This document shows, piece by piece, positions 2,308-58,000 of a stretch of 64,000 nt of DNA (within the stretch, counting starts at the first letter, position 1; the number at the start of each line of letters is the position of its first letter). Origin of the DNA: Escherichia phage sutha; the sequence record PV245934.1; one strand, written 5' to 3'. Position numbers and translations under genes: made by a program. The notes beneath the pieces were generated by a model. The model saw only the letters and a program-made list of their open reading frames with translations, was not told the DNA's origin and did not search any database.

Positions 2308-2555
2308 TGGAAGGTTTAATTGAAGCTATTAAATCAAACGACCTCGTAGCCGCTCGTAAATTATTTGCTGAAGCCATGGCTGCAAGAACGATTGATTTAA
2401 TTAAAGAAGAAAAAATCGCTATCGCTCGTAATTTCTTAATCGAAGGTGAAGAACCTGATGATGAGGATGATGAAGACGAGGATGATGACGAAGATAGCGA
2501 TGATAAAGACGACAAAAAAGACAAAGACTCTGACGAAGACGAGGATGATGAATAA
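2307..2555 (+). CDS. 67: prohead core protein gp67, acidic D/E-rich C-terminus
   Basis: 82 aa, TAATG overlap with gene 20 stop; acidic tail [13 protein letters not shown]; position matches T4 gene 67. Confidence 0.85.
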
Positions 2556-2980
2556 TGCTTCTGATCCCTGAAACTCATGAATTAGTTCTCGAGAATGTCG
2601 AAGCACTTATTCCTGAAGCACAGGGTCGCTTTGACGAATTGTCTTCTGCTTTAAATAAAGACGATATAAATACAATTGTCGAGAATATGCTTGATGATGA
2701 AACTGATTTAGCAATTGCATTAGCTTCTATTAATGAAGATATGCCGCTAAATGAATTCATCGTTAAACATGTTTCTGCTCGTGGTGAAATTACACGTACT
2801 AAAGACCGCAAGACGCGTGAACGTAATGCATTTCAAACCACCGGGCTGTCTAAAGCAAAACGTAGACAAATTGCTCGCAAAGCTACCAAAACGAAGATTG
2901 CCAATCCAGCAGGTCAATCTCGTGCTCAGCGTAAGCGTAAAAAAGCTCTTAAACGCCGTAAAGCATTAGGATTAAGCTAA
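2555..2980 (+). CDS. 68: prohead core protein gp68
   Basis: 141 aa, start overlaps gene 67 stop; size and position match T4 gp68. Confidence 0.85.
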
Positions 2981-3618
2981 TGAATGAACCCCAATTACTA
3001 ATTGAAACTTGGGGTCAACCTGGCGAAATTATTGATGGTGTGCCAATGCTTGAATCCCACGATGGAAAAGACTTAGGTTTAAAACCTGGTTTATACATCG
3101 AAGGAATATTCATGCAAGCGGAAGTCGTCAATAGAAATAAACGTCTTTATCCAAAACGCATATTAGAAAAAGCGGTAAAAGACTATATCAATGAGCAAGT
3201 TTTAACTAAACAAGCTCTCGGAGAATTAAATCATCCTCCACGCGCTAATGTTGACCCGATGCAAGCCGCTATCATTATAGAAGATATGTGGTGGAAAGGA
3301 AATGACGTATACGGACGAGCTCGTGTTATTGAAGGTGACCATGGTCCTGGAGATAAATTAGCAGCTAATATTCGTGCCGGATGGATTCCAGGAGTTTCTT
3401 CTCGTGGATTAGGTTCATTGACTGACACAAATAAAGGTTATCGTATCGTAAACGAAGGATTCAAATTAACTGTAGGTGTTGATGCAGTATGGGGTCCAAG
3501 TGCTCCAGATGCATGGGTAACTCCTAAGGAAATTACCGAATCACAGACGGCGGAAGCCGATACAAGTGCCGATGACGCCTATATGGCTCTCGCAGAGGCC
3601 ATGAAAAAAGCGTTATAA
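2980..3618 (+). CDS. 21: prohead core scaffold protein and protease gp21
   Basis: 212 aa, size and position match T4 gp21 prohead protease. Confidence 0.9.
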   Translation: MNEPQLLIETWGQPGEIIDGVPMLESHDGKDLGLKPGLYIEGIFMQAEVVNRNKRLYPKRILEKAVKDYINEQVLTKQALGELNHPPRANVDPMQAAIIIEDMWWKGNDVYGRARVIEGDHGPGDKLAANIRAGWIPGVSSRGLGSLTDTNKGYRIVNEGFKLTVGVDAVWGPSAPDAWVTPKEITESQTAEADTSADDAYMALAEAMKKAL

Positions 3619-4476: not shown

Positions 4477-6042
4477 ATGACTATCAAAACTAAAGCTGAA
4501 CTTTTGAACAAATGGAAGCCATTACTGGAAGGTGAAGGTTTACCGGAAATTGCTAATAGCAAACAAGCGATTATCGCTAAAATCTTTGAAAACCAGGAAA
4601 AAGATTTCCAGACAGCTCCAGAGTACAAAGACGAAAAAATCGCTCAGGCGTTCGGTTCTTTCTTAACAGAAGCTGAAATCGGTGGTGACCACGGTTACAA
4701 TGCTACTAACATCGCTGCTGGTCAGACTTCTGGCGCAGTAACTCAGATTGGCCCAGCTGTTATGGGTATGGTACGTCGTGCTATTCCTAACCTGATTGCT
4801 TTCGATATTTGTGGCGTTCAGCCGATGAACAGCCCGACTGGCCAGGTATTCGCACTGCGTGCAGTATATGGTAAAGACCCAATCGCTGCCGATGCTAAAG
4901 AAGCATTCCACCCAATGTATGGTCCAGATGCAATGTTCTCTGGTCAGGGTGCTGCTAAGAAATTCCCAGCTCTGGCTGCTAGCACACAAACCGTTGTAGG
5001 TGATATCTATACTCACTTCTTCCAGGAAACTGGTACTGTGTATCTGCAAGCTTCCGCTGTAGTAACAATCGATGCTAGTGCTAACGATGCAACTAAACTG
5101 GATGCTGAAATTAAGAAACAAATGGAAGCTGGTGTACTGGTAGAAATCGCTGAAGGTATGGCTACTTCTATCGCTGAACTTCAGGAAGGTTTCAACGGTT
5201 CTACCGATAACCCATGGAATGAAATGGGCTTCCGTATCGATAAACAAGTTATCGAAGCTAAATCTCGTCAGCTGAAAGCTGCTTACTCTATCGAATTAGC
5301 ACAAGACCTCCGCGCTGTTCACGGTATGGATGCTGATGCTGAACTGTCTGGTATTCTGGCTACAGAAATCATGCTGGAAATCAACCGTGAAGTTGTTGAT
5401 TGGATTAACTACTCAGCTCAGGTTGGTAAATCTGGTATGACCCTGACTCCGGGTTCTAAAGCTGGTGTATTTGACTTCCAGGATCCGATTGATATTCGTG
5501 GTGCTCGCTGGGCGGGTGAATCCTTTAAAGCTCTGTTGTTCCAGATTGACAAAGAAGCAGTTGAAATTGCTCGTCAGACCGGCCGTGGTGAAGGTAACTT
5601 CATTATCGCTTCCCGTAACGTAGTTAACGTTCTGGCTTCAGTTGATACCGGCATTTCTTATGCTGCGCAGGGTCTGGCTACCGGCTTTAATACTGATACT
5701 ACCAAGTCAGTATTTGCTGGTGTTCTGGGTGGTAAATACCGTGTATATATCGACCAGTATGCTAAACAGGATTATTTCACTGTAGGTTATAAAGGTCCGA
5801 ACGAAATGGATGCTGGTATTTACTATGCTCCATATGTAGCTCTGACTCCGCTGCGTGGTTCCGATCCGAAGAACTTCCAACCAGTAATGGGATTCAAAAC
5901 TCGTTACGGTATCGGTATCAACCCATTTGCAGAATCCGCTGCTCAGGCTCCGGCTTCTCGCATCCAGAGCGGTATGCCTTCTATTCTGAATAGCCTTGGT
6001 AAAAACGCTTACTTCCGCCGTGTATATGTTAAAGGTATCTAA
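4477..6042 (+). CDS. 23: major capsid protein gp23
   Basis: 521 aa; MTIKTKAELLNKWKPLLEGEGLPEIANSKQAIIAKIFENQ... matches T4 gp23 by recall. Confidence 0.97.
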   Translation: MTIKTKAELLNKWKPLLEGEGLPEIANSKQAIIAKIFENQEKDFQTAPEYKDEKIAQAFGSFLTEAEIGGDHGYNATNIAAGQTSGAVTQIGPAVMGMVRRAIPNLIAFDICGVQPMNSPTGQVFALRAVYGKDPIAADAKEAFHPMYGPDAMFSGQGAAKKFPALAASTQTVVGDIYTHFFQETGTVYLQASAVVTIDASANDATKLDAEIKKQMEAGVLVEIAEGMATSIAELQEGFNGSTDNPWNEMGFRIDKQVIEAKSRQLKAAYSIELAQDLRAVHGMDADAELSGILATEIMLEINREVVDWINYSAQVGKSGMTLTPGSKAGVFDFQDPIDIRGARWAGESFKALLFQIDKEAVEIARQTGRGEGNFIIASRNVVNVLASVDTGISYAAQGLATGFNTDTTKSVFAGVLGGKYRVYIDQYAKQDYFTVGYKGPNEMDAGIYYAPYVALTPLRGSDPKNFQPVMGFKTRYGIGINPFAESAAQAPASRIQSGMPSILNSLGKNAYFRRVYVKGI

Positions 6043-6057
6043 TCTTTGACGATTTAA

Positions 6058-6073
6058 GGGACCTTCGGGTCCC
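6058..6073 (+). terminator. intrinsic terminator GGGACC-ttcg-GGTCCC with UUCG tetraloop
   Basis: Perfect hairpin followed by T-rich tract directly after gene 23 stop. Confidence 0.75.
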
Positions 6074-6090
6074 TTTAGTTGTTTTTATGG

Positions 6091-6098
6091 TATAAATA
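6091..6098 (+). promoter_or_regulatory. late promoter TATAAATA (gene 24)
   Basis: Exact TATAAATA 28 bp upstream of gene 24 ATG. Confidence 0.7.
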
Positions 6099-6125
6099 AA
6101 TCATATAAACCAAAAGGAAAGCGCA

Positions 6126-7409
6126 ATGGCTAAAATCAACGAACTTCTGCGCGAATCAACCACAACGAATAGCAACTCAATCGGTCGCCCAAATCTCGTT
6201 GCTTTGACTCGCGCTACCACTAAATTAATATATTCTGACATTGTAGCAACGCAAAGAACTAATCAACCTGTTGCTGCTTTTTATGGTATCAAATACCTTA
6301 ACCCAGATAACGAATTTACATTTAAAACTGGTGCTACTTACGCTGGCGAAGCTGGGTACGTAGACCGAGAACAAATCACAGAATTAACAGAAGAGTCTAA
6401 ATTAACTCTCAATAAAGGCGATTTATTCAAATATAATAATATCGTTTATAAAGTATTAGAAGATACACCATTTGCTACCATTGAAGAAAGCGATTTAGAA
6501 TTAGCTCTTCAGATTGCAATTGTTCTTTTAAAGGTTCGTTTATTTTCTGATGCTGCAGTAACAAGCAAATTTGAAAGCTCTGATAGTGAAATTGCGGATG
6601 CTAGATTCCAGATTAATAAATGGCAAACCGCAGTTAAATCTCGTAAACTTAAAACTGGCATCACAGTTGAATTAGCACAAGATTTAGAAGCAAATGGATT
6701 CGATGCTCCTAATTTCTTGGAAGATTTGCTTGCAACTGAAATGGCAGATGAAATCAATAAAGATATTCTGCAGTCTTTGATTACAGTATCAAAACGCTAT
6801 AAAGTTACAGGAATTACTGATACTGGATTCATTGATTTGAGTTATGCATCTGCACCTGAAGCTGGTCGTTCATTATACCGAATGGTGTGTGAAATGGTTT
6901 CGCATATCCAAAAAGAATCAACTTATACTGCAACGTTCTGTGTTGCTTCAGCTCGTGCTGCTGCGATTCTTGCTGCATCAGGTTGGTTAAAACATAAACC
7001 AGAAGATGATAAATATCTTTCACAAAATGCCTACGGGTTCTTAGCTAATGGTTTACCGCTTTATTGCGATACCAACAGCCCATTAGATTATGTAATCGTT
7101 GGTGTAGTAGAAAATATCGGTGAAAAAGAAATTGTTGGATCAATTTTCTATGCTCCGTATACAGAAGGTCTTGACTTAGATGACCCTGAACATGTAGGTG
7201 CATTTAAAGTTGTAGTTGATCCAGAAAGCTTACAACCATCTATCGGTTTATTGGTTAGATATGCTTTATCTGCAAATCCTTACACTGTAGCAAAAGATGA
7301 AAAAGAAGCAAGAATAATTGATGGTGGAGACATGGATAAAATGGCGGGTCGTTCAGATTTGTCTGTTTTATTAGGTGTTAAATTACCAAAAATTATCGTT
7401 GATGAATAA
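6126..7409 (+). CDS. 24: capsid vertex protein gp24
   Basis: 427 aa, gp23 paralogue pattern; T4 gp24 size and position. Confidence 0.95.
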   Translation: MAKINELLRESTTTNSNSIGRPNLVALTRATTKLIYSDIVATQRTNQPVAAFYGIKYLNPDNEFTFKTGATYAGEAGYVDREQITELTEESKLTLNKGDLFKYNNIVYKVLEDTPFATIEESDLELALQIAIVLLKVRLFSDAAVTSKFESSDSEIADARFQINKWQTAVKSRKLKTGITVELAQDLEANGFDAPNFLEDLLATEMADEINKDILQSLITVSKRYKVTGITDTGFIDLSYASAPEAGRSLYRMVCEMVSHIQKESTYTATFCVASARAAAILAASGWLKHKPEDDKYLSQNAYGFLANGLPLYCDTNSPLDYVIVGVVENIGEKEIVGSIFYAPYTEGLDLDDPEHVGAFKVVVDPESLQPSIGLLVRYALSANPYTVAKDEKEARIIDGGDMDKMAGRSDLSVLLGVKLPKIIVDE

Positions 7410-10891: not shown

Positions 10892-11509
10892 ATGTACCAC
10901 TTTGTATATGAAACAACAAATCTAATAAACGGTAAAAAGTATATAGGAAAACACTCTACTGATGACTTGAATGATGGTTACCTTGGTTCCGGTAAGGCAA
11001 TTCAACAGGCTATAAAGAAATATGGTGAAAACAATTTCTCTAGAACAATACTAAAAGAGTTTAAAACTTCCGAAGAAGCGTACATGTATGAAGAAGAAAT
11101 TATAACTCCTGAACTAATAAAAAGCAAAAATTATTATAATATGAAACCTGGTGGAATTGGTGGAATTGTTATGACTGCAGAGGTTATAGCAAAGATGAAA
11201 GAATCTTCCGCTAAGAGATTTGAAAACTCACCGGGCACGGTATTAGGTACAACTTGTTACACCAATGGAACTAAAAATATTTTTATTAAACCTGGAGAAC
11301 TTGTTCCAGAAGGATTTGTAAAAGGAATGGTTCATCCTAATAGAAAGTCCAGAAAAGGATGTAAAGTCAAACCGACTACCACAGGAACTTTTTGGGTCAA
11401 TAACGGTGCAATAAATAAATTAATACATCCAGACGGTATTATTCCCGACGGATTTATTAAAGGTCGTCTCATGAAAAGAGACTCTAAAGGCAAATTTAGT
11501 AAGGCATAA
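10892..11509 (+). CDS. segE: free-standing GIY-YIG homing endonuclease (SegE-like)
   Basis: 205 aa; N-term YHFVYETTNLINGKKYIGKHS...YLGSG is a GIY-YIG domain; C-term repeated PEGFVKG/PDGFIKG modules; location hoc/inh-uvsW matches T4 segE. Confidence 0.85.
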   Translation: MYHFVYETTNLINGKKYIGKHSTDDLNDGYLGSGKAIQQAIKKYGENNFSRTILKEFKTSEEAYMYEEEIITPELIKSKNYYNMKPGGIGGIVMTAEVIAKMKESSAKRFENSPGTVLGTTCYTNGTKNIFIKPGELVPEGFVKGMVHPNRKSRKGCKVKPTTTGTFWVNNGAINKLIHPDGIIPDGFIKGRLMKRDSKGKFSKA

Positions 11510-31639: not shown

Positions 31640-31872
31640 AGTACGCCATACACCCTTTGTGCTTCAACTAATCCATCAAAATCCAGTTTAAGATGTGTTA
31701 TTTGGTCACCATCACCTGGATTCACAATTACTAATACTGAACGAGGAGTTTCGGTAATAACACGAACCGATGTTTCAGGAAATCGTTCAGAAACCTTATT
31801 TACCAATTCCTGAGCAAATAGTTTAACTTTTTCTTGGAATTCTCTAGTAGTAATTGGTTTTTCACTTAGCAT
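31636..31872 (-). CDS. hypothetical protein (cd.2 position)
   Basis: 78 aa ORF. Confidence 0.6.
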   Translation of the reverse strand: MLSEKPITTREFQEKVKLFAQELVNKVSERFPETSVRVITETPRSVLVIVNPGDGDQITHLKLDFDGLVEAQRVYGVL

Positions 31873-32393
31873 GTTGATCCCAGCTCCTTACTTTCAACGT
31901 TTTTAACTAATTTGACAGAAACTAATTCGGCATCTTGGGTAATCATTACCGGGCCTTCTTCATACTCTTCAAGATATTCTAGAGCTTTCTTTTTAGCTTC
32001 TTCCTTCGTATCAGTTTGAGCATAGATATAAAACATACAACCAGTAATACCTACTACTTTCCACTTAATTTCTTTATCAGTTTTAATTTCAAATTTACTG
32101 ATAGAGTCATCTTTTTGAACTTCTTCGAAAAAAGAATATTCTAACATATAAGCAATTGAAAATAACGGGCTAACTTTATAAGATTCGCCCATTACATCAA
32201 CAGCTTTATACCAGCAATCGTCAATTTCGCGTTTAATGCTAATAACATTTTTCGCAGGATCTATTTTTACTTTAAATGAATTTTCCCCAATAAACTGAGC
32301 AATTCGTTTATTAGCCCCGCAAGTTTCATTAAAAATATCTTTATATCCAGCTTTAAAGCGATAAACCTTATCTTCTTCAAACCATTTGCTCAT
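31866..32393 (-). CDS. hypothetical protein (cd.3 position)
   Basis: 175 aa ORF with early promoter upstream. Confidence 0.65.
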   Translation of the reverse strand: MSKWFEEDKVYRFKAGYKDIFNETCGANKRIAQFIGENSFKVKIDPAKNVISIKREIDDCWYKAVDVMGESYKVSPLFSIAYMLEYSFFEEVQKDDSISKFEIKTDKEIKWKVVGITGCMFYIYAQTDTKEEAKKKALEYLEEYEEGPVMITQDAELVSVKLVKNVESKELGSTC

Positions 32394-37396: not shown

Positions 37397-38566
37397 TTAA
37401 AAATATTTTTTAAAACTCATCATAACTTTATCATCAACATCATTATCAATCTGTGCTACAAGGTAAGATGACAGTTCTACTTCTTGTGGCGCGGATTGAA
37501 CATTATCAGAATTAAGATATTCACGAATCCAAGGATACGGATGTTTAACCGGAGCATCAGTAATTGGGCATGGAAGACCACACTGTTTCATACGAGATAC
37601 AGTTAAGTAATCAATAAAGCTCCACATGCTATTTGTATTTAATCCAGGAACATCGCCATCTTTAAATAAATGAACTGCCCAGTCTTTTTCTTGACGGTTA
37701 ACTTCCATGAAAATATCAACTGCTTCTTGTTCACACTCTTGGGCGATTTTAACCCATTCATCACCATCAGTGCCAAGTTGAAGTTGACGAATAATATATT
37801 GGGTGCCTTTAAGGTGAAGCTGCTCATCACGTGCAATGAACTTCATAATCTTGGCATTACCTTCCATAATTTCCATGTTCTTATGGAAGTTAAAGGTACA
37901 TGCGAAAGATACATAAAAACGAATAGCTTCCAATGCGTTGATTACATGAAGGCAAAGATAAAGAGATTTCATTAGTGCCCGTTTAGTATATTCAACAACT
38001 TTGCCTAGCTCTTCTTTACGAAATCCTTCTGATAAAATTCCTTCATAATCTTCAACCGCATTCTGATATTCACGAGTCTTAACTAGAACATCATCATAAT
38101 AGCGACCAATAGATTCAGCACGTTTCATGATAGCTTTATCTAATACAATCTCATCAAATACCTTTGATGGATCAGTATAAAGATTTCGCATAATATGAGT
38201 ATATGAACGGCTGTGAATAGTTTCGCTAAAAGTCCATGTAGCAACCCATGTATCAAGACTTGGGTCTGAAATTAACGACATAAGTACAGCAGACGGCGCA
38301 CGACCCTGAATGCTATCCAAAAGTGATTGATACTTCAGGTTATTAGTAAAAATATCTTGCTGATATTGAGGAAGCTTGTTAAATTGTGCAGCATCCATCA
38401 TTAAGTTTACTTCTTCAGGACGCCAGAAAAATGATAACTGCTTTTCGGTTAAATCTTCAAAAACTTTATGGCGTTGAATATCATAACGCGCAATACCAAG
38501 ACCTGAACCGAAGAACATAGGTTCTTTTAAAACATCAACTGGATTTGTATTAAAAACTGTGCTCAT
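37397..38566 (-). CDS. nrdB: ribonucleotide reductase small subunit NrdB, uninterrupted (no intron)
   Basis: 389 aa continuous ORF MSTVFNTNPVDVLKEPMFFGSGLG...KKYF with di-iron radical signature; T4 nrdB is split by an intron, this copy is not. Confidence 0.95.
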   Translation of the reverse strand: MSTVFNTNPVDVLKEPMFFGSGLGIARYDIQRHKVFEDLTEKQLSFFWRPEEVNLMMDAAQFNKLPQYQQDIFTNNLKYQSLLDSIQGRAPSAVLMSLISDPSLDTWVATWTFSETIHSRSYTHIMRNLYTDPSKVFDEIVLDKAIMKRAESIGRYYDDVLVKTREYQNAVEDYEGILSEGFRKEELGKVVEYTKRALMKSLYLCLHVINALEAIRFYVSFACTFNFHKNMEIMEGNAKIMKFIARDEQLHLKGTQYIIRQLQLGTDGDEWVKIAQECEQEAVDIFMEVNRQEKDWAVHLFKDGDVPGLNTNSMWSFIDYLTVSRMKQCGLPCPITDAPVKHPYPWIREYLNSDNVQSAPQEVELSSYLVAQIDNDVDDKVMMSFKKYF

Positions 38567-38617
38567 AAATTTTCCGCTTAGTTAATAGATAGTGACTCGT
38601 CCGTGAGTCAAATTATA

Positions 38618-40882
38618 TCATAATTTACAGGATGAACAATCTTCAGCTTTTGGAGTTTCTATTTCATAATCATCAGTACCAGAACCATCGCGGGTATTAT
38701 GATAATAGAAATTTTTTCCGCCAAAATACCAAAAATACAAAAGGTCATCAATCATTATTGACATTGGAACCTTTCCTTTTGGAAAAATCTGCGGGTCATA
38801 ATATGTATTTGCTGAAGCTGATTGACATACCCATTTAAGCATAATAGCTACCTGCGTAAGATAAGGTTTATTACCTTTCTTAGCTAATTTCCACGTATAA
38901 TCATAGAGGTCTATGTTATGCTCAATATTGGGCACGACTTGATTAAAGGAACCCTCTTTTGATTCTTTAACAGAGACTGGTCCACGTGGAGGCTCGATAC
39001 CGTTTGTACTGTTAGAAACTTGGGAAGATGACTCACATGGCATAAGTGCTGATAATGTGCTATTACGGATGCCAAAGAGCTTAAGGTCTTCCCGCAGCGA
39101 CGACCAGTCACAAACGTATTTTGGAGCTGCGATTTGGTCAATCTTTTTATTGTACCAGTCGATAGGTAATTCGCCTCGAGACCAACGAGTGTCTGAATAA
39201 TATTCGCAAGGTCCTTTTTCTTTGGCGAGCTTAATGGATGCTTTAATGAGTCCATACTGCAATCTCTCAAATAGTTCATGTGTTAAATCGTTAGCATCTT
39301 CATAAGAAGCAAAGTTACTTGCCAGCCAAGCTGCATAGTTAGTAACACCTACGCCAAGGTTTCGACGCTTTTTAGCTTTTTCTGCTTCAGGAACTGGATA
39401 TCCTTGGTAATCCAAAAGATTATCAAGAGCGCGAACTTGAACTTCTGCTAATTCATTAATTTTATCTTGGTCTTGCCAATCGAAGTTATCCAACACGAAT
39501 GCAGATAACGTACACAATCCAATTTCAGCATCAGGACTATTCACATCATTTGTTGGAATAGCAATTTCACAGCACAAGTTACTCTGACGAATAGGTGCCT
39601 TTTCACGAATAAATGGAGTATAGTTATTCGTATTATCAATGAACTGCACATAAATCCTTGCTGTTCCTGAGCGTTCAGTCATTAGCAATTCAAACAGTTC
39701 ACGTGCTTTAATACGCTTTTTACGAATATTAGGGTCTTTTTCTGCGGCTTCATATAATTCACGGAAACGGTCTTGGTCTTTAAAATAAGAATAATAAAGC
39801 TCGCCACTCATTTCATGCGGACTGAACAAAGTAATGTAGTCGTTCTTTCCAAAACGTTCCATCATCAAATCATTCAGCTGAACGCCATAATCCATATGAC
39901 GGATACGGTTTTCTTCTACGCCTTTGTTATTTTTCAAAACGAGAAGATTTTCAACTTCCAAATGCCAAATAGGATAATAAGCAGTAGCAGCGCCGCCACG
40001 AATTCCACCCTGTGAGCATGATTTAACAGCAGTCTGAAAATGTTTCCAAAAAGGAATAACACCAGTATGGCGTACTTCACCTGTACCAATCTTAGAACCT
40101 TCGGCACGAATCATACCAACGTTAATACCAATTCCAGCGCGTTTGGAGATATATTCAACAATTGAAGCGGAAACCTTATTGATAGACTTCAGCGAATCAC
40201 CTGCCTCAATAACAACACATGAACTAAACTGTCGAGTCGGAGTACGACAACCAGCCATAATAGGAGTTGGTAATGAAATTTGTCGAGTAGATACTGCTTC
40301 ATAAAAACGAATAACATGTTTTAATCTATCAACAGGTTCATCTTGATGTAATGCCATTCCAATAGTCATAAATGCAAACTGTGGAGTTTCATAAATTTGA
40401 CCAGTGGTTTTATCTTTAACGAGATATTTTTCTTTTAATTGCATCGCCCCGGAATAAGTAAATTCCATATCCCGCTCGTGCTTAATTTTTGATTCTAAAA
40501 ATGTAATTTCTTCTGCTGAATATTTTGACAGCAGTTCAGGGTCATATTTACCTTCATTTACACAGTAAGAAATATGGTCAATAAATGAACGTGGTTCATA
40601 TTGCCCATAAACATGCTTACGAAGAGCAAACATTAAACAGCGAGCGGCTACATATTGATAATCAGGCTCTTCAACTGAAATAGAATTCGCAGCAGCCTTA
40701 ATTACAATGGTTTGAATGTCATCAGTGGTCATTCCATCACGGAGATATGATTTAATATTTTCATATAATTCATAAGGATCTACAGATGTTCCTTCGGCTG
40801 CCCAAGATAAAACTTTAATAATTTTTTGTGGATCAAAGCTCTGAGAAACACCACTACTTTTGATAACATTAATTAATTGCAT
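38618..40882 (-). CDS. nrdA: ribonucleotide reductase large subunit NrdA
   Basis: 754 aa from MQLINVIKSSGVSQSFDPQKII... matching T4 NrdA by recall; track ORF has a 32-codon in-frame extension; AGAGGA Shine-Dalgarno before ATG at 40882. Confidence 0.95.
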   Translation of the reverse strand: MQLINVIKSSGVSQSFDPQKIIKVLSWAAEGTSVDPYELYENIKSYLRDGMTTDDIQTIVIKAAANSISVEEPDYQYVAARCLMFALRKHVYGQYEPRSFIDHISYCVNEGKYDPELLSKYSAEEITFLESKIKHERDMEFTYSGAMQLKEKYLVKDKTTGQIYETPQFAFMTIGMALHQDEPVDRLKHVIRFYEAVSTRQISLPTPIMAGCRTPTRQFSSCVVIEAGDSLKSINKVSASIVEYISKRAGIGINVGMIRAEGSKIGTGEVRHTGVIPFWKHFQTAVKSCSQGGIRGGAATAYYPIWHLEVENLLVLKNNKGVEENRIRHMDYGVQLNDLMMERFGKNDYITLFSPHEMSGELYYSYFKDQDRFRELYEAAEKDPNIRKKRIKARELFELLMTERSGTARIYVQFIDNTNNYTPFIREKAPIRQSNLCCEIAIPTNDVNSPDAEIGLCTLSAFVLDNFDWQDQDKINELAEVQVRALDNLLDYQGYPVPEAEKAKKRRNLGVGVTNYAAWLASNFASYEDANDLTHELFERLQYGLIKASIKLAKEKGPCEYYSDTRWSRGELPIDWYNKKIDQIAAPKYVCDWSSLREDLKLFGIRNSTLSALMPCESSSQVSNSTNGIEPPRGPVSVKESKEGSFNQVVPNIEHNIDLYDYTWKLAKKGNKPYLTQVAIMLKWVCQSASANTYYDPQIFPKGKVPMSIMIDDLLYFWYFGGKNFYYHNTRDGSGTDDYEIETPKAEDCSSCKL

Positions 40883-40907: not shown

Positions 40908-40915
40908 TATAAATA
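40908..40915 (+). promoter_or_regulatory. late promoter TATAAATA for antisense homing endonuclease gene
   Basis: Exact TATAAATA 22 bp upstream of ATG at 40938, then AGGAG Shine-Dalgarno. Confidence 0.6.
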
Positions 40916-40937: not shown

Positions 40938-41669
40938 ATGAAATCTGGAATATATGCTATTATAAACACTAAAACCAATAAGCACTATATAGGAAGTGCA
41001 ATTAATTTTGAAGAACGATGGAAACGACACTTCAAAGATTTAGATAATGGAAATCATCATTCAATAAAGCTGCAACGTTCTTATAATAAGCATGGGAAAG
41101 ATGCTTTCGTATGTAAAATCATAGAAGAACTTCCATACGAAAAATCTATCATTATTGAACGTGAAAATTATTGGATACATGAATATGACTCAAAGGAAAA
41201 TGGGTATAATATAGCAGACGCATCGTTTGGGGATACCTTATCTCATCACCCAAGAAAGCAAGAAATCCTTAATAAAATTTCAAATGCAATTAAAAATAAT
41301 AATTCAAAATTATCACCAGAAGAACTTAAGCAAAAACATGGTAGACCTAAAGATATTAAAGGTAAAACTATAGAAGAACACTATGGGTTAGATCGTGCTA
41401 TAGAAATAAGCAAAAAGTTCCAAGAAAGAAACGCTGCACTTAATATGAAAGGCATCAATAATCCATATTATGGACAGACACATACCAATGAAGTTAGAAA
41501 ACGAATTTCTGACTCACAAAGAGGTAAAAAGAAACCCCATCTAAGAGTAAGTATAGATGGGGTAGAATATCCAACAATAGCAGAAGCTGTGCGTCAAACC
41601 GGAATAAGCAGAAAACTTATATCTAAAAGATGTGCTCTAGATTGTTGGGAATCATATTTATACTGCTAA
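40938..41669 (+). CDS. free-standing GIY-YIG homing endonuclease, I-TevI-like catalytic domain with NUMOD/HTH C-terminus
   Basis: 243 aa; first ~100 aa ([21 protein letters not shown]...RWKRHFKDL...[12 protein letters not shown]...IIERENYWI...[13 protein letters not shown]) closely parallel I-TevI; C-term [22 protein letters not shown] and [22 protein letters not shown]; antisense to flanking nrdA/td. Confidence 0.85.
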
Positions 41670-41903
41670 AGTTCTACATTCGTCATATTGTTTTTCCGTT
41701 AAAACAGTAATATCATAATAACAATCTGAAGAAGTTTTAACTGTAGAAATTTTATTATCAAAATACTCACGAGTCATTTTATGAGTATAATATTTTTTGC
41801 CATAAATGACAATAGGCTGTTCTGGTCCTGGAACTTCTAACTCGCTTGGATTAGGAAGTGTAAAAAGAACTACACCAGAAGTATCTTTAAATCGTAAAAT
41901 CAT
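41658..41903 (-). CDS. hypothetical protein between td and nrdA
   Basis: 81 aa ORF, convergently overlaps the endonuclease 3' end by 12 bp. Confidence 0.6.
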
Positions 41904-41926
41904 ATATCCTCACAATTAATAATTAA

Positions 41927-42238
41927 TTACACCGCCATTTTTCCTTTAATAGAAGGGTGTGATTCGTAACCTTTAAGAACGAAATCTTTAGGCCTGAGTT
42001 TAAGAATGTATTCCAATTGTTCTTTAGTAGAAAGATAGCGGAATTTATAAGGCAATCCGCCTATTACCAGTTCACAAAGCTCTTTAGGTTCACGACGCAA
42101 AATTTCTTTACATTGTTCTACGTGATTCATATAGATATGAGTATTACCGCCAGAAAATATCAAATCTCCTGGAATAAGATTACACATCTTAGCTACAATA
42201 TGAACTAACGCAGCATATGATGCAATGTTGAACGGTAG
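41927..42238 (-). CDS. td: thymidylate synthase exon 2
   Basis: Encodes LPFNIASYAALVHIVAKMCNLIPGDLIFSGGNTHIYMNHVEQ...KGKMAV, matching the C-terminal 103 aa of T4 TS; preceded by intron 3' end ...CATAATG. Confidence 0.93.
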   Translation of the reverse strand, partial: LPFNIASYAALVHIVAKMCNLIPGDLIFSGGNTHIYMNHVEQCKEILRREPKELCELVIGGLPYKFRYLSTKEQLEYILKLRPKDFVLKGYESHPSIKGKMAV

Positions 42239-43254
42239 CATTATGTTCAGATAAGGTCGTTAATCTTATCCCGGAATTATATCCAGCTGCATGTCACCAT
42301 GCAGAGCAGACTATATCTCCAACTTGTTAAAGCAAGTTGTCTATCGTTTCGAGTCACTTGACCCTACTCCCTAAAGGGATAGTCGTTAGGCATTTATGTA
42401 GAACCAATTCCACTTATCAGATTTTACACGGTAAGTAACTAATCCTGATGAAATTTCAAAATGTCTAGCCGCATCGGCTGCACATTCAAAAATAATCCCA
42501 TCGCATGAAATCTTTTTGATGTTAGCTGGCTTTTTGCCTTTCATCTTTTCAGATAGTTTAGTTTTAGTTTTTTCTGAATGTTTGTGATTAAAGAACGGGT
42601 TATTTTCACCTGAACGTTTTCGGCACTTTCCACAAGTATCGGCCGAAGATGGTATGCGAACACCGCATTTACAAAACTTGTGGTTTTCTGGATTCCATCG
42701 GCCATTTTTACTTCCGTGTTTACCATAAAGAGCTTTCCGACCATCAGGACCAAGCTTAAGCATCTTAGCTTTAACAGTTTCAGCTCGTTTCTTAGCAATT
42801 TCTTCTTTTAATGGATGATTTGAAAGCACATCGCCAAAAGACGCATCAGCAATATTATATCCATTAATTTTAGAATTTAGCTCTTTAATCCAAAAATTTT
42901 CTCGTTCAATAATCAAATCTTTCTCATATGGAATTTCTTCCAGTACAGAGCATTCAAAAACATTACCATGTTTATTAAAAGACCTTTGAAATTTTATAGA
43001 AGAGTGAACACCGTTTTCAAGGTCTTTAAAATGTCTCTTCCATCTTTTCTCAAAATCTTTAGCACTTCCAACATACACTTTACCGTTTAAAGTGTTTTTA
43101 ATCTGATAAATTCCGCTTTTCATAAACACCTCTTTTTATATAGAAGTATTTATTAAAGGGTAGTCCTACAATTTAGCACGGGATTGTCTACTAGAGAGGT
43201 TCCCCGTTTAGATAGATTACAAGTATAAGTCACCTTATACTCAGGCCTAAATTA
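42239..43254 (-). mobile_element. group I self-splicing intron of td carrying I-TevI
   Basis: 1016 bp between exon 1 end (...VDVFLG, GGT then TAA in intron) and exon 2 start (CTACCG); 5' intron sequence TAATTGAGGCCTGAGTATAAGGTGACTTATACTTG as recalled for T4. Confidence 0.9.
42386..43123 (-). CDS. intron-encoded GIY-YIG homing endonuclease I-TevI
   Basis: 245 aa from [35 protein letters not shown]...; zinc finger CKCGVRIPSSADTCGKC; C-term HTH ...VTYRVKSDKWNWFYINA; matches I-TevI by recall. Confidence 0.93.
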   Translation of the reverse strand: MKSGIYQIKNTLNGKVYVGSAKDFEKRWKRHFKDLENGVHSSIKFQRSFNKHGNVFECSVLEEIPYEKDLIIERENFWIKELNSKINGYNIADASFGDVLSNHPLKEEIAKKRAETVKAKMLKLGPDGRKALYGKHGSKNGRWNPENHKFCKCGVRIPSSADTCGKCRKRSGENNPFFNHKHSEKTKTKLSEKMKGKKPANIKKISCDGIIFECAADAARHFEISSGLVTYRVKSDKWNWFYINA

Positions 43255-43802
43255 ACCTAAGAAAACATCGACACTGCGTTGGTACCATTGTAAATCCAAA
43301 TATCCATTACGCACATTAAACTGATAAAACATATGACAAGGTGGTAATGCCATTTGCTTAAGTTCTGCCGGATTCCATGCTGAAACAATTTGACGTCTAT
43401 CATTTGGCAGTTTTTTAATACGTTCAACAACTTCTATAATTTGATCTACACCACCAAAATCGCGCCACTGTTTTCCATAAATTGGACCAAGTTCACCGCT
43501 ATGGTATCCTAAATCTTTTGCTTGATTTTCGTAATTTTCATCCCAGACTGTTTTGCCTTGAATTAATGAATCATGTTGAATTAATCGCAAATCATTGACA
43601 TTTGTGCTTCCCGATAAAAACCATATTAGCTCAGCAATACAGGCTTTCCACGCTAATTTTTTAGTTGTTACCGCAGGAAAACCTTTAGTTAAATCCCAGC
43701 GTAATTTAGTACCAAACAAAGCAATTGTTCCTGTGCCTGTTCGGTCATCGGTTTCGTAACCATTTTCCAGGATATCTTTAATTAAAAATTGGTATTGTTT
43801 CA

Positions 43803-43803
<1 letters not shown>
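43255..43803 (-). CDS. td: thymidylate synthase exon 1
   Basis: 183 codons from ATG at 43803 (MKQYQFLIKDILENGYETDDRTGTGTIALFG...[30 protein letters not shown]); the track ORF begins at an upstream TTG. Confidence 0.93.
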
Positions 43804-44835
<1,032 letters not shown>

Positions 44836-45197: not shown

Positions 45198-45227
45198 ATA
45201 GTATCACACTACTACCCTGCTGTAAAC
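45198..45227 (-). promoter_or_regulatory. early promoter (GTTTAC -35)
   Basis: Minus GTTTAC-AGCAGGGTAGTAGTGTGA-TACTAT upstream of the 80-aa ORF. Confidence 0.5.
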
Positions 45228-45613
45228 TACTTTTTGAAAGTTTTTCGCAAAAGTTCAATGATTTCATCTACATTGTTTTCGTCTACAATGCAGTGAATTT
45301 TTGTTACGCCAGAAACTGGATCTTCAACTCCAGCTTCATCTTCTTCAAGAGTCGGTTCTTTATACTCGCGAAAACAGTAAAATTCATCTTCACAAATTTC
45401 TGCAAGTCTATCACAAAGGTAAAAATGCTTTCCATTCGCGCATTTAATATGTTTTACCTCTTTAAATCCATCAGCAAAGAAAACTTCTTTAACTTCAAAC
45501 CATCCGCCATTTTCTTGGATAATTTTAACTATTGATGCATTGGATCGTGGGCTATGACTAATAAATGCGTCAATAAGGCTTGGAATAAGTTCATACTTTT
45601 CGCCGATATACAT
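45227..45613 (-). CDS. hypothetical protein (frd.3 position)
   Basis: 128 aa ORF. Confidence 0.6.
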   Translation of the reverse strand: MYIGEKYELIPSLIDAFISHSPRSNASIVKIIQENGGWFEVKEVFFADGFKEVKHIKCANGKHFYLCDRLAEICEDEFYCFREYKEPTLEEDEAGVEDPVSGVTKIHCIVDENNVDEIIELLRKTFKK

Positions 45614-45655
45614 TACGTTTTCCTCATTTTAATGTGGCTTGATGCCCCTTGATAA

Positions 45656-45886
45656 TTACTGTTCAATCAATCCCATGTAAAATTCTGCGTCTTCAGAATC
45701 CATACCATCGCAGTATTCATTAGCCATAAATCGTTCAAGAACTTCTAAAGGACCTTCAATAACAATAGAAAAATTGCAATAATTGGGATCATCATGAATA
45801 CTTGTGATACTAAGTTCAGGATAACGATTACGAATAATTTCTTCAATATATTCAAAATCAACGGTGTCAATATCAACTTTAGCCAT
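45656..45886 (-). CDS. hypothetical small acidic protein
   Basis: 76 aa from [17 protein letters not shown]... with AGAGGA Shine-Dalgarno; the longer track ORF would include its own promoter. Confidence 0.55.
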
Positions 45887-45929
45887 ATTATTTTCCTCTT
45901 TAATCATCAGCAGTATTGCCGATAGTTGT

Positions 45930-45959
45930 ATAGTACCATGGAAGGACAAGGATGTAAAC
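45930..45959 (-). promoter_or_regulatory. early promoter (GTTTAC -35) within repeated cassette
   Basis: Minus GGTTTAC-18 bp-TACTAT; cassette shared with 62249-62338. Confidence 0.6.
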
Positions 45960-45990
45960 CGTTTTGTGAAAAAAATTTTGAAATAAAAAA

Positions 45991-46008
45991 GGGACCTCTA
46001 GGGTCCCC
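45991..46008. terminator. terminator GGGGACCC-ta-GGGTCCC after gene 32
   Basis: Near-perfect palindrome flanked by A-run and T-run, directly downstream of gene 32 stop. Confidence 0.7.
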
Positions 46009-46030
46009 AATTAATTAGTAATATAATCTA

Positions 46031-46939
46031 TTAAAGGTCATTCAAAAGGTCATCCAAGTCCGTGTCATCAGCACTAGATGAACTGCCGGAGCTTGAGCTC
46101 ATAAAATCATCTTCAGTTTTTGTATTGAAGTCATCAACATTGAATGCATCCAAATCATCAGCAACTTTATCGGCTTTCTTAGCAGCAGTTGCAGCGGCAC
46201 CACCCATCACAGCAGTTCCCATAACTTGACTGAACTTAGTGCTCAGTTCTTCAAACGATTTGAACTTATCTTTAGAAGTCATTTCAGAAAGGTCAACCAT
46301 TTGTTCGAACAGTTCTTTCTGGAAAGATTCATCATCAATGTTTGGAATCGCAGATTGATTCAGGAATTTAGATTCATCGTAGTTACTAAAACCAGAAACT
46401 TGTTTAACTTTCAGTACAAAGTTAGCACCTTCCCACGGACAAGTTACATCAACTGGAGTTTCACCCATTTCAACATCAACCGCAATCATTGCATTGATTT
46501 TGTCCCAAATCTTTTTACCAAAACGGTATTTGAATACTTTACCTTCGTTTTCTGGAGCTTGTGGGTCTTTAACAACCAGGATATTAGCCCAATAAGAAGT
46601 TTTACGTTTCAGTTGAGAATATTCGGTTTTGTTTGTATTGTACAGGTCATTTTTACTAATGTACTGACACACCGGACAAGAGTCATAATCGCCGTGTGTA
46701 GATGAACAAGTTTCAATATACCATTTGCCATTTTTCTTGAACCCATGGTTAACAAGAATTGCAAACGGAAGTGCGTCATCTGTTTTTGCCGGCAGGAAAC
46801 GAATTACTGCTTGACCGTTACCCGCATTGTCGAGTTTCAGTTTCCACTCGCCTTTATCTTCAGAAGAAAAACCACCTTTATTGCCATTCAGTTTAGCCAT
46901 TTGTGCAGCGAGTTCAGCAGTAGATTTACGTTTAAACAT
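46031..46939 (-). CDS. 32: single-stranded DNA-binding protein gp32
   Basis: 302 aa; [22 protein letters not shown]...; zinc site [15 protein letters not shown]; acidic C-terminus [16 protein letters not shown]; matches T4 gp32 by recall. Confidence 0.97.
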
Positions 46940-47002
46940 TTTTATTTCCTTTTTAATTTAATTAACAGTTGGTGCTATGACGATGTATGACCTCATAGCT
47001 GG
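46940..47002 (-). promoter_or_regulatory. gene 32 translational operator: A/U-rich leader plus pseudoknot-forming GCUAUGA...UCAUAGC element
   Basis: Minus-strand 5' [66 protein letters not shown] read directly; matches my recollection of the T4 gene 32 autoregulatory operator. Confidence 0.65.
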
Positions 47003-47022
47003 TCAGTGAGATAATTATAATC

Positions 47023-47030
47023 TATTTATA
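47023..47030 (-). promoter_or_regulatory. late promoter TATAAATA upstream of gene 32
   Basis: Plus tatttata is minus TATAAATA, ~85 bp upstream of gene 32 ATG. Confidence 0.55.
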
Positions 47031-47038
47031 ATAAGCAA

Positions 47039-47692
47039 TTAATACTTACAAGATTTCACAGTTTCAATGAAAACACTTTTAGCTTTCTGTGAATCAATAT
47101 TTAAAATTTTTCTATAAGCCTTTAACTTTATAGAATAATTATTCCAGACTAAATTATCAGTTTGTTCATCATGTTTATCAATTATATTTAAAAACGAATC
47201 AAGCAAGATAAACGTTTCAAACGAAATTATGTTCGATTGCAGAAGTTTAAAAATATAACTTGATTGAACTTTTGGATTATACTCAAAGATTTCTTTAAAA
47301 GCAGAAACTTCAACTTTCTTACTAAAATAATAAATGTTGCGAATATCTTCTTCAAACTTAAATTTAATTTGCTTTAAGCGTCCGATATATTCACGATAAA
47401 ACACAAGTGCATCAGCGTCCGATATCTCACCAATCCATGCGTCTTGGTTAGCAACTAAGTTGCTTATGAATATCAAGGTGAGTTCCTTCAATTTATATTT
47501 CTCTGCTAGTTTTTCAAAGAAATATTTATCTCGGCGTTTTTGATACGCATTATCCGAAACACGCATGCACCAGTTATATTTGATTACGTCATACCGACCA
47601 CCAAAATGGTTTTTGCACATCAAGTATAGTTTATATACCGATTTTCCGTTAATATAACGTTCTCCATCAGCAGGCATGCGGAGTTTAATCAT
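47039..47692 (-). CDS. 59: helicase loader gp59
   Basis: 217 aa; MIKLRMPADGERYINGKSVYKLYLMCKNHFGG...; T4 gp59 size and position. Confidence 0.93.
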   Translation of the reverse strand: MIKLRMPADGERYINGKSVYKLYLMCKNHFGGRYDVIKYNWCMRVSDNAYQKRRDKYFFEKLAEKYKLKELTLIFISNLVANQDAWIGEISDADALVFYREYIGRLKQIKFKFEEDIRNIYYFSKKVEVSAFKEIFEYNPKVQSSYIFKLLQSNIISFETFILLDSFLNIIDKHDEQTDNLVWNNYSIKLKAYRKILNIDSQKAKSVFIETVKSCKY

Positions 47693-48027
47693 AGTAGAAA
47701 ATCTAATGTATTAGTTTTTTCACAACGAACAACAGAAGGACGTAAAAGATTTTCGTCAATGGCTTCTGACTGAATTTTTTCAATTATACCTGAAGGAATA
47801 AATTTAGCAAATTGAGTTTCAGGAATAGAGTTTTCTTCCAAGAATGCTGTCGTAGCTTCAAGATAACTCATTCCAAACTCTTCTACCATTTTTTCAATAA
47901 TAAATCCGTTTTCTTGACGATCAAGAAGCTTTGCAATTTCATCCTTTTCTTTCTTAATTGAAAGTTCTTTTTCTGAAAGACCGGTCTCATCGACCGGACG
48001 AATATCATTTAGAGAAAACTGTGTCAT
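47689..48027 (-). CDS. 33: late transcription co-activator gp33
   Basis: 112 aa from MTQFSLNDIRPVDETGLSEKEL...; ATGA overlap with gene 59. Confidence 0.88.
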   Translation of the reverse strand: MTQFSLNDIRPVDETGLSEKELSIKKEKDEIAKLLDRQENGFIIEKMVEEFGMSYLEATTAFLEENSIPETQFAKFIPSGIIEKIQSEAIDENLLRPSVVRCEKTNTLDFLL

Positions 48028-55031: not shown

Positions 55032-58000
55032 ATGGCTACTTTAAAACAAATACAATTTAAAAGAAGCAAAACTGCAGGTGCACGTCCTGCTGCTTCAGTA
55101 TTAGCCGAAGGTGAATTGGCTATAAACTTAAAAGATAGAACAATTTTTACTAAAGATGATTCAGGAAATATCATTGATTTAAGCATTTCCGCTGGCGGTA
55201 ATATCAGTGGAAATATCACTCAAACTGGCGATTATTTACAAAATGGAACATATAATCTTAATGGAAACCAGTTTGTTTATGCAGGAAAATATATTGAATT
55301 TTTACCTAAAACTGCTGGCAATGGTGCTTGGGCAAATCAACACAAAAATAAAGCTCCTATCTTTACCGATTTGAGTTCAACGACTTCTACTTCAGAATAC
55401 CATCCGCTAATTAAACAACGCTATAAAGATGGAACTTTTTCTGTTGGTACGTTAGTAAACGAAGGTAGTTTTAAAATTCAATATATCAATGAATCTGGTG
55501 ATTCAAAATATTGGACTTTTAATCGTAACGGTAGTTTTATTGTAGATAATGGCAGTATTGAAGTCCGTGCAGGTAATATTTCTGCATCAGGCAATATTAA
55601 CTCGGCAACTGGATTTGTTTCTGCACCGCGCGTCAATACAAAAAATATTAACCTGAGTTCTAAAACCTTTATACCGAATAATGACACGGGTTATGACATT
55701 GTTTCTTTACCTACTTGGATTTATAATCCACCAGCAGATGGTTCTGACCGTGATACAAACGGATTGAACTACATGCGTAAAATGCGGGCTTCAAATACTT
55801 CTAGCATTTTCCATGAAGTAGTTGACTGTCGTTCGGGAAAACCACAAGAAATTTCTTGGTGGACCGGCGTAGGACCTTCATCTTTCCAGTGGGCGTTTGA
55901 TACCTCTGGACGTATTACCGCAGGTAAATCTATTTCAGTAGGTCTTCCTGATAGTGGTACAAATGGTCGTTATCCTTTAGATTCTGCAATTTCTATTGGT
56001 ATTGCGATTGGCGATAACGATACCGGTATTAAATGGGTCCGCGATGGCGTTTATGACCTGATGGCTAACGGTATTTCATCCGCTACCATTTTGAATAATG
56101 GTATTAATAGTACTAAAAAATTGATGGTTGGTTATAGCCGTGATTCCGGCTCTACTTGGGATTTCCCAAATAACAACCAAGCAATGTTTACTGCGCGTAC
56201 CGATATTGATGGTAATAATAACGGCGATGGTCAGACTCATATTGGTTATAGCAGCAATTCTAAAATGTATCACTATTTCCGTGGCACGGGTCGTATGGCT
56301 GTCGGAATGGCTGAAGGTTTAATTGTTGAGCCGGGTATTTTAGATATTAAAACTGGGTCCAATAGAGTTGCTATTAGAGCAGATGGCACATTTGACTCAA
56401 CCCAACGTATTTCAATGCGTACTGGATTATTTTTATCAGGTGATGATAATACCAATGCTTTGTCATTTAAAGCGCCTACAGGTGTTGACGGGACAAAAAC
56501 CATTAACTGGGATGCAGGCACTCGTAATGGTCAGAATAAAAATACTGTAACCATTAAAGCGTGGGGTAACTCATTTAACTCAACTCCAGGTAATAGAGAA
56601 ACTGTATTCGAAGTTTCAGATTCACAAGGTTATTATTTCTACGCTCAACGCACTAATCCTGCGTCAGGTCAAACAGTAGGTCCGGTTAACTTTAAATTTA
56701 ACGGAACTGTCGAAACAGGCCATATCATAGGCCTTGGAAATATAAGTGCCTCCGGTACAGGTTCTTTCGGTGGCAATGTTACCATGTCTAAAGGTTTGTT
56801 TGTCCAAGGTGGTTCTTCTATTACTGGACAAGTTAAAATCGGCGGAACTGCTGATGCATTAAGAATTTGGAATGCTGAATATGGTGCTATTTTCCGTCGC
56901 TCGGAAAGTAATCTTTATATTATCCCGACTCCTAAAGGTGCTGGTGAAAGTGGTGGAATAAGTAATCTCCGCCCATTAAGTATTAGTCTTAATAATGGTA
57001 TGGTACAAATGCGCCATTCTGTTACATTAGGTGATGATGGGTTAGGCGGCAATATGGTTACTGTTGATAATGATAGTAAACTTGTCGTGGTAACTTCTAA
57101 TACCAGATTAAGCCCTAATTTCCGCATGCAAATAGGCCACTCGTCTTATATTGATGTTGAATGCACTAACTCTGTTCGCCCGGCAGGTGCTGGTTCGTTT
57201 GCTTCACAGAATAACGAAAATATTCGTGCACCGTTCTATATGAATATCGACCGTGGTGATAATAGTACTTATATTCCAATTTTGAAGCAACGTTACGTTC
57301 AAGGAGATAGTACTTATTCTATTGGTACCTTGATTTCTCAGGGAGACTTCCGCGTCCATTATCACCAGGGAACTAGCACCAATGGCGTAGATTTGGGTTG
57401 GGAATTCCGTCGCACAGGCGATTTCCGCGCGGCAGGTAAAATTATTGCCGGCGCTGCCACTCTTGGCACTGATGGTAATATTACTGGTGGTTCTGGTAAT
57501 TTTGCTAACTTAAACAGTACAATTGAATCACTTAAAACTGATATTGTTTCAAGTTATCCTATTGGAGCTCCAATTCCATGGCCTACAGATACTCCTCCTA
57601 ACGGTTACGCTATTATGGAAGGTCAGACCTTTGATAAGTCTGCATATCCAAAGCTAGCTGTTGCATATCCTAGCGGTGTTATTCCAGATATGCGCGGGCA
57701 AACTATCAAAGGTAAACCAAGTGGTCGTGCTGTTTTGAGCACAGAAGAAGATGGTGTTAAGGCTCATAGCCATAGCGCATCTGCTTCAAGTACTGACTTA
57801 GGCACTAAAACCACATCAAGCTTTGACTATGGTACGAAGAACACTAATAGTACTGGTGCTCACACTCACTCTGTAAGTGGTACAACAAGTGCTGCTGGTA
57901 ACCACGCTCATCACTTAGGTCTACTATTAGTTAACGGCGGTGCTGCTTTGTACGGTTATACAACCATTGGTAACAGTCTACCTAGAACACTTGACTGGCT

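Follow-up and report, generated by a model that had tools for sequence, protein, structure and literature searches.

Compact T2-type gene 59/32 and gene 23/24 junctions in Escherichia phage sutha

Both of the loci that T4 fills with the free-standing GIY-YIG homing endonuclease genes segG (formerly 32.1) and segD are empty in Escherichia phage sutha. Since the two spacers that stand there are letter for letter those of T2, the empty slots are an ordinary and already known state, and only the Mosigvirus-type patches that lie around one of them, in genes 32 and 59, merit a further look. The two junctions are very probably endonuclease-free T2-type alleles of loci filled by segG and segD in T4, with the native regulatory regions kept. 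The DNA analysed, referred to below as the window, is a stretch of 64,000 nucleotides of record PV245934.1, a Tequatrovirus (T4-like) segment that runs from gene 18/19 to about gene 52 and is collinear with T4.

The two junctions compared with T4

Genes 32 (ssDNA-binding protein, 302 aa) and 59 (helicase loader) lie on the minus strand of the window at 46031–46939 and 47039–47692, and both give full-length Pfam matches (gp32, E = 8e-65, for the former; T4_Gp59_N and T4_Gp59_C for the latter). At the other locus the gene 23 stop codon, TAA, occupies 6040–6042 and the ATG of gene 24 begins at 6126. The original prediction had put 99 bp between the gene 59 stop and the gene 32 start and 83 bp, consisting of a terminator and a late promoter, between genes 23 and 24, and had taken this compactness as a sign that segG and segD are absent. 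Both intervals were recovered, with a hairpin and a late-promoter motif visible in the shorter one, and within each of them the part that stands opposite the T4 insertion can be delimited.

46940–47038, minus strand: spacer from the gene 59 stop (TAA) to the gene 32 ATG, an unoccupied T2-type segG slot of 99 bp
47003–47037, minus strand: stretch opposite the body of T4 segG, 35 bp by blastn break points, carrying the presumed native promoters of gene 32
6043–6125, plus strand: spacer between gene 23 and gene 24, an unoccupied segD slot of 83 bp
6054–6113, plus strand: stretch opposite the segD-bearing 789 bp of T4, 60 bp by blastn break points and alignment

In the T4 reference (NC_000866.4) SegG is annotated on the minus strand at 147909–148541, between gene 32 (146948–147853) and gene 59 (148543–149196), and segD at 106561–107232, also on the minus strand and thus antisense, between gene 23 (end at 106510) and gene 24 (start at 107323). 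The review table of Edgell et al. 2010 gives the same insertion positions for the two genes, names gene 32 as the target of SegG and lists that of SegD as unknown (PMC2988022). The positions that the original prediction had given are therefore right, and the possibility that T4 has the same compact junctions is excluded.

When the window was compared by blastn with T4 positions 99001–168903, long blocks of 93–98% identity were obtained, and collinearity was broken exactly at the 59/32 and 23/24 junctions. At the first of these the 35 bp at 47003–47037 stand for 623 bp of T4 (147919–148541, the segG body), with break points at 47002/47038 of the window and 147918/148542 of T4. At the second the 60 bp at 6054–6113 stand for the 789 bp at 106522–107310, which include the antisense segD. 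Neither gene was found elsewhere in the window: tblastn of T4 SegG against the 64 kb gave no match at E ≤ 0.01, nor did the MobE and I-TevIII queries match, and the sole match to T4 SegD was its paralogue SegE (46% over the N-terminal GIY-YIG domain). Neither a GIY-YIG ORF nor any homology to one was seen at the 59/32 or the 23/24 junction.

T4 has the same flanking genes as the window, in the same order and orientation, and the terminator after gene 23 and the 3' portion of the operator of gene 32 are conserved as well, but it has in addition the 633-bp segG ORF, whose 3' end overlaps the gene 32 pseudoknot, and the 672-bp antisense segD, neither of which is present in the window. Published descriptions of T4 have the segG ORF reaching into the pseudoknot at its 5' side (PMC535899) and place the middle and late promoters of gene 32 within segG (PMC2988022). 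The segG cassette of T4 would have replaced 35 bp, and the segD cassette 60 bp, of spacers such as those seen in sutha.

Regulatory contents of the spacers

No coding-strand ORF of 40 aa or more was found in the 59/32 or the 23/24 spacer. The original prediction had called the 99 bp "all regulatory", which is fair, because the spacers hold late-promoter motifs, a terminator, an A/U-rich leader and a segment able to form a pseudoknot, the terminator being the one element of these that belongs to the 23/24 spacer only. The following elements were assigned.

47014–47037, minus strand: putative MotA-dependent middle promoter, read from the sequence (MotA-box-like TGCTTAT at 47037–47031, an 11-bp spacer and TATAAT at 47019–47014)
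47023–47030, minus strand: T4-type late promoter TATAAATA of gene 32, an exact motif match whose function is presumed from what is known of T4 late promoters
46974–47005, minus strand: H-type pseudoknot of the gene 32 mRNA, T2 variant, at −66 to −35 relative to the AUG, assigned by T2 identity and visible complementarity
46940–46973, minus strand: A/U-rich part of the operator with UUAAA/UAAA repeats and the Shine-Dalgarno sequence AAGGAA, assigned by alignment to T4 and predicted to be unpaired
6056–6085, plus strand: intrinsic terminator after gene 23, GGGACC-TTCG-GGTCCC followed by a T-run (−20.3 kcal/mol, z = −4.5)
6091–6098, plus strand: late promoter TATAAATA of gene 24, an exact motif match with activity presumed from T4

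The window holds 20 copies of the late-promoter motif, where 9.3 ± 3.1 would be expected and 0 of 100 shuffles reach 20, and the copies at 47023–47030 (minus strand) and 6091–6098 (plus strand) stand on the correct strands for genes 32 and 24, respectively. The TGCTTAT and TATAAT elements at 47014–47037 are taken by us to match the middle-promoter consensus. A sigma-70 scan of the coding strand of the 59/32 spacer returned no promoter; late and middle-type promoters lie outside the model of that scan. Going by the T4 and T2 literature, the middle-type and late promoters of gene 32 would overlap in this spacer. The 23/24 spacer, in which the terminator hairpin itself takes up 6056–6075 with the T-run directly after it, includes a ribosome-binding site as well as the terminator and the late promoter.

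The putative pseudoknot of the gene 32 leader is built from stem 1 (UGACC/GGUCA) with loop 1 (A) and stem 2 (GCUAUGA/UCAUAGC) with loop 2 (UACAUCG). Stem 2 coincides with the predicted minimum-free-energy structure, and the pairing of stem 1 is seen directly in the sequence. Searches with Rfam, both of 46500–47500 at E ≤ 1 and of the whole window at gathering thresholds, gave 0 matches, the pseudoknot operator included. The td intron region at 41678–43804, which is collinear with the intron-containing td of T4, was likewise missed at gathering thresholds, so the silence of Rfam in this window is not evidence of absence and is neutral on the pseudoknot. Because no Rfam model matches the operator, the assignment rests on T2 identity and on the complementarity visible in the sequence.

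Next to the pseudoknot, the A/U-rich tract UUAAUUAAAUUAAAAAGGAAAUAAAA is predicted to be unstructured and overlaps the ribosome-binding site. The T4 operator differs from that of the window in stem 1 and loop 2 of the pseudoknot and in one extra 5-nt A/U repeat, so that the window has one repeat fewer. A pseudoknot combined with an A/U-rich tract is the known architecture of the gene 32 operator, which serves the autogenous repression of translation by gp32 (PMC535899, PMC3014915). By analogy with T4 and T2, then, the segment 46940–47005 is presumably the autoregulatory translational operator of gene 32, of the T2 type, through which gp32 would repress its own synthesis. Without a cassette, the 99-bp spacer would keep the ribosome-binding site and A/U-rich operator of gene 32 together with its promoters and the pseudoknot from which autorepression by gp32 nucleates, and in the 83-bp spacer, which lacks segD, the terminator of gene 23 and the late promoter of gene 24 would likewise be kept. 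For annotation this means that both spacers can be treated as regulatory, with nothing missing or misassembled there.

Prevalence of empty slots and the mosaic of genes 32 and 59

In T2 (AP018813) the two spacers measure 99 and 83 bp, and the window is identical to them at 99 of 99 and 83 of 83 positions. It also shares with T2 the variant form of the gene 32 pseudoknot and a gp32 of 302 aa. The two phages differ in the coding flanks of genes 32 and 59, where the window has patches of Mosigvirus type, and in their other endonuclease genes, as the T2 record is without an annotated segE, a td intron with I-TevI or the extra GIY-YIG gene, all three of which are present in the window.

We counted the states of the two loci across a collection of 50,697 phage records, about 500 of which are Tequatrovirus. 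Full-length T4-type segG was found in 143 records and full-length T4-type segD in 54. The compact 59/32 junction was present at ≥95% identity in 349 records and was uninterrupted in 506, and the 23/24 junction was uninterrupted in 718, at least 236 of them at ≥99% identity. As compact junctions outnumber the carriers of segG and segD, the endonuclease-free state is the majority one in the genus, and the window adds one more T2-type genome to this majority class. The claim of a distinct endonuclease repertoire thus holds relative to T4, but the repertoire is not unusual at these two loci, with spacers equal to those of T2 and a compact state that most of the genus shares.

Outside the genus the 59/32 slot is variable. 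Both T2 and RB69 are known to be without segG (PMC535899), and the 59–32 region of RB69, a Mosigvirus, is endonuclease-free like that of the window and likewise has a pseudoknot and an A/U-rich operator (PMC535899); in mogra the slot is empty too. The Mosigvirus spacer is only about 73% similar to the core of the window, whereas the flanking coding patches reach 94–98%. Gaprivervirus DK-13 and Dhakavirus NC-G differ from the window in that segG-like genes fill the slot and overlap the gene 59 stop (at 2500–3138 and 2500–3129, respectively, of the pieces compared). The presence of such genes at 59/32 in these two phages makes the junction a recurrent insertion site across Tevenvirinae genera. 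At the other locus, the 23/24 spacer of RB69 (109210–109632) measures 423 bp, bears two tiny annotated antisense ORFs (41 and 29 aa) and may be what is left of a segD-like gene that has decayed.

Around the empty segG slot the coding sequence of the window is a mosaic.

46502–46796, minus strand: patch in gene 32 (gene nucleotides ∼143–437, 295 bp), 96.6% identical to RB69 and 97.6% to mogra versus about 82% to T2 and T4
47423–47667, minus strand: patch in gene 59 (gene nucleotides ∼26–270, 245 bp), 94.2% identical to RB69 and 98.0% to mogra versus about 75% to T2 and T4

The two patches bracket a T2-type core of roughly 600 bp (46808–47407) which includes the empty slot. When 200-bp tiles of the whole window were compared with T2, T4 and RB69, RB69 was the best match at the gene 32 and gene 59 patches only. 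Two other places, 44150–44350 inside frd and 45300–45800 in frd.2/frd.3, are 56–80% identical to T2, T4 and RB69 alike and represent further mosaic patches.

No record among the 50,697 matches the mosaic (the best full-length match to 46450–47700 is 89.6%). Relatives of gp32 in IMG/VR reach at most 96% identity; the exact protein was found only in one Logan contig of 1766 bp (SRR32352025), an exact match to window 45199–46964, and the databases searched contain no exact gp59. The contig extends 25 nt upstream of the ATG of gene 32 and stops within the A/U-rich operator, and its break at 46964 may reflect low-complexity sequence or population heterogeneity. That the sole public contig with this gp32 stops inside the spacer, and that no phage in the collection matches the mosaic, could be turned into an argument that the compact junctions stem from a collapsed or chimeric assembly. 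We find such an artefact barely conceivable, as both spacers are base for base those of T2 and of hundreds of independent genomes, genes 32 and 59 have unbroken reading frames that Pfam domains cover in full, and the Logan contig is exact over all of its 1766 bp, the gene 32 patch included.

On the simplest reading the patches arose when conserved replication genes of this phage underwent ordinary homologous recombination with those of a co-infecting Mosigvirus, and the T2-type core could have been kept after that exchange or together with it. An origin from the flanks of DK-13 or NC-G was considered and rejected at only 73–79% identity. It is also possible, though unlikely, that a mosaic placed around an empty slot is the footprint of endonuclease-driven exchange, either through repair of a SegG-type break on a heterologous template or through selection of a cleavage-resistant gene 32 allele. 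This idea is weakened because in RB69 and mogra, the nearest donors, the slot is itself empty. If it were true, sutha would show a way in which phages without the endonuclease evade marker exclusion in nature.

A related scenario is that of secondary loss, in which an ancestral segG, segD or both were removed by recombination with a T2-type allele, the patches being the outer remains of an older and longer conversion tract. A T2-type core with a patch of about 98% identity to mogra on either side would fit two successive exchanges centred on the slot, no other tiles of Mosigvirus type occur in the 64 kb, and elsewhere, as in DK-13 and NC-G, the same slot is repeatedly filled by segG-like genes. 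We nevertheless hold this course of events to be quite unlikely: the closest donors carry no endonuclease gene at 59/32, tblastn revealed no segG remnant, the flanks of the phages that do bear segG-like genes are much too distant from the patches to have supplied them (73–79%), and recombination of the ordinary kind in conserved replication genes accounts for the patches without any endonuclease.

SegG targets and other endonuclease genes

Carriage of free-standing homing endonuclease genes is known to vary among T-even phages, and marker exclusion by SegG is familiar from T4 × T2, where T4 excludes T2 gene 32. In a mixed infection with a segG-positive phage the sutha genome would, like that of T2, be a potential recipient of segG, and for marker exclusion, the asymmetry of which the original prediction had raised, analogy with T2 is reasonable as far as SegG is concerned. 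No SegD-driven asymmetry is expected: the 16-bp SegD site described by Sokolov et al. in 2018 is reportedly the same in segD-positive and segD-negative phages.

The analogy meets a complication in the gene 32 patch. Liu et al. reportedly found in 2003 that SegG cuts T2 gene 32 at a distance of 332 bp from the segG insertion site, and a cut at this distance would, we assume, fall inside the patch at 46502–46796. As the patch lies 207–535 bp from the segG slot, it covers the reported 332-bp position and so probably includes the SegG cleavage region. Between gene 32 nucleotides 225 and 234 the window has the T4 base at three of the four sites where T2 and T4 differ. Since the region probably targeted is a patch of Mosigvirus type, a T2-like sensitivity to SegG is not to be assumed for sutha. 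An empty slot alone should not be used to predict SegG sensitivity, as in this phage a Mosigvirus-type sequence has taken the place of the likely target segment of gene 32.

These observations might be read in favour of an adaptive escape allele, that is, of Mosigvirus sequence laid over the SegG site and conferring resistance to cleavage and to marker exclusion by segG-positive competitors. The patch does cover the reported cut position, and the T4 bases at three of the four differing sites point the same way. Yet the gene 59 patch contains no known endonuclease target and such patches can arise neutrally, and we consider adaptive escape very unlikely. Crosses have shown that SegG carries itself and T4 gene 32 into T2 (PMC535899, PMC2330249).

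The original prediction had contrasted the empty slots with the presence of segE and of an additional endonuclease gene close to td, and both of these genes are indeed there. With the intron-borne enzyme of td, the window has the following endonuclease genes.

10892–11509, plus strand: segE, 98% amino acid identity to T4 SegE, Pfam SegE_GIY-YIG
42386–43129, minus strand: I-TevI in the td intron, 89% amino acid identity to T4 I-TevI, Pfam GIY-YIG, I-TevI_ZnF and I-TevI_DNA-bd
40938–41669, plus strand: extra free-standing GIY-YIG endonuclease, Pfam GIY-YIG and NUMOD3, 46% amino acid identity to I-TevI

The extra gene, next to nrdA and td, lies antisense between nrdA and nrdA.2, in the place that nrdA.1 has in T4, and is preceded at about 22 bp by a TATAAATA motif of its own (40908–40915). 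It was found in only 26 phage records, 8 of E. coli phages and 18 of Klebsiella phages.

Other differences from T4 are scattered over the window. At 37899–37902 the nrdB group I intron of T4 with its defective I-TevIII is missing, at 38566–38622 the nrdB.1-mobE segment is missing, and the 3' part of nrdB between them (37902–38566) shows no more than 84% identity to T4. Between cd.2 and cd.3 there is an insertion of 519 bp (31866–32393, minus strand) that encodes an ORF of 175 aa with no Pfam match and no counterpart in T2, T4 and RB69. Between td and frd, which adjoin directly in T4 unlike in the window, there is a 68-aa ORF (43803–44009, minus strand) in DNA that T2, T4 and RB69 lack (tiles score 0). 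Finally, the distal tail-fibre region with genes 37/38 at 55200–58000 resembles T2, T4 and RB69 little or not at all and is likely a host-range cassette.
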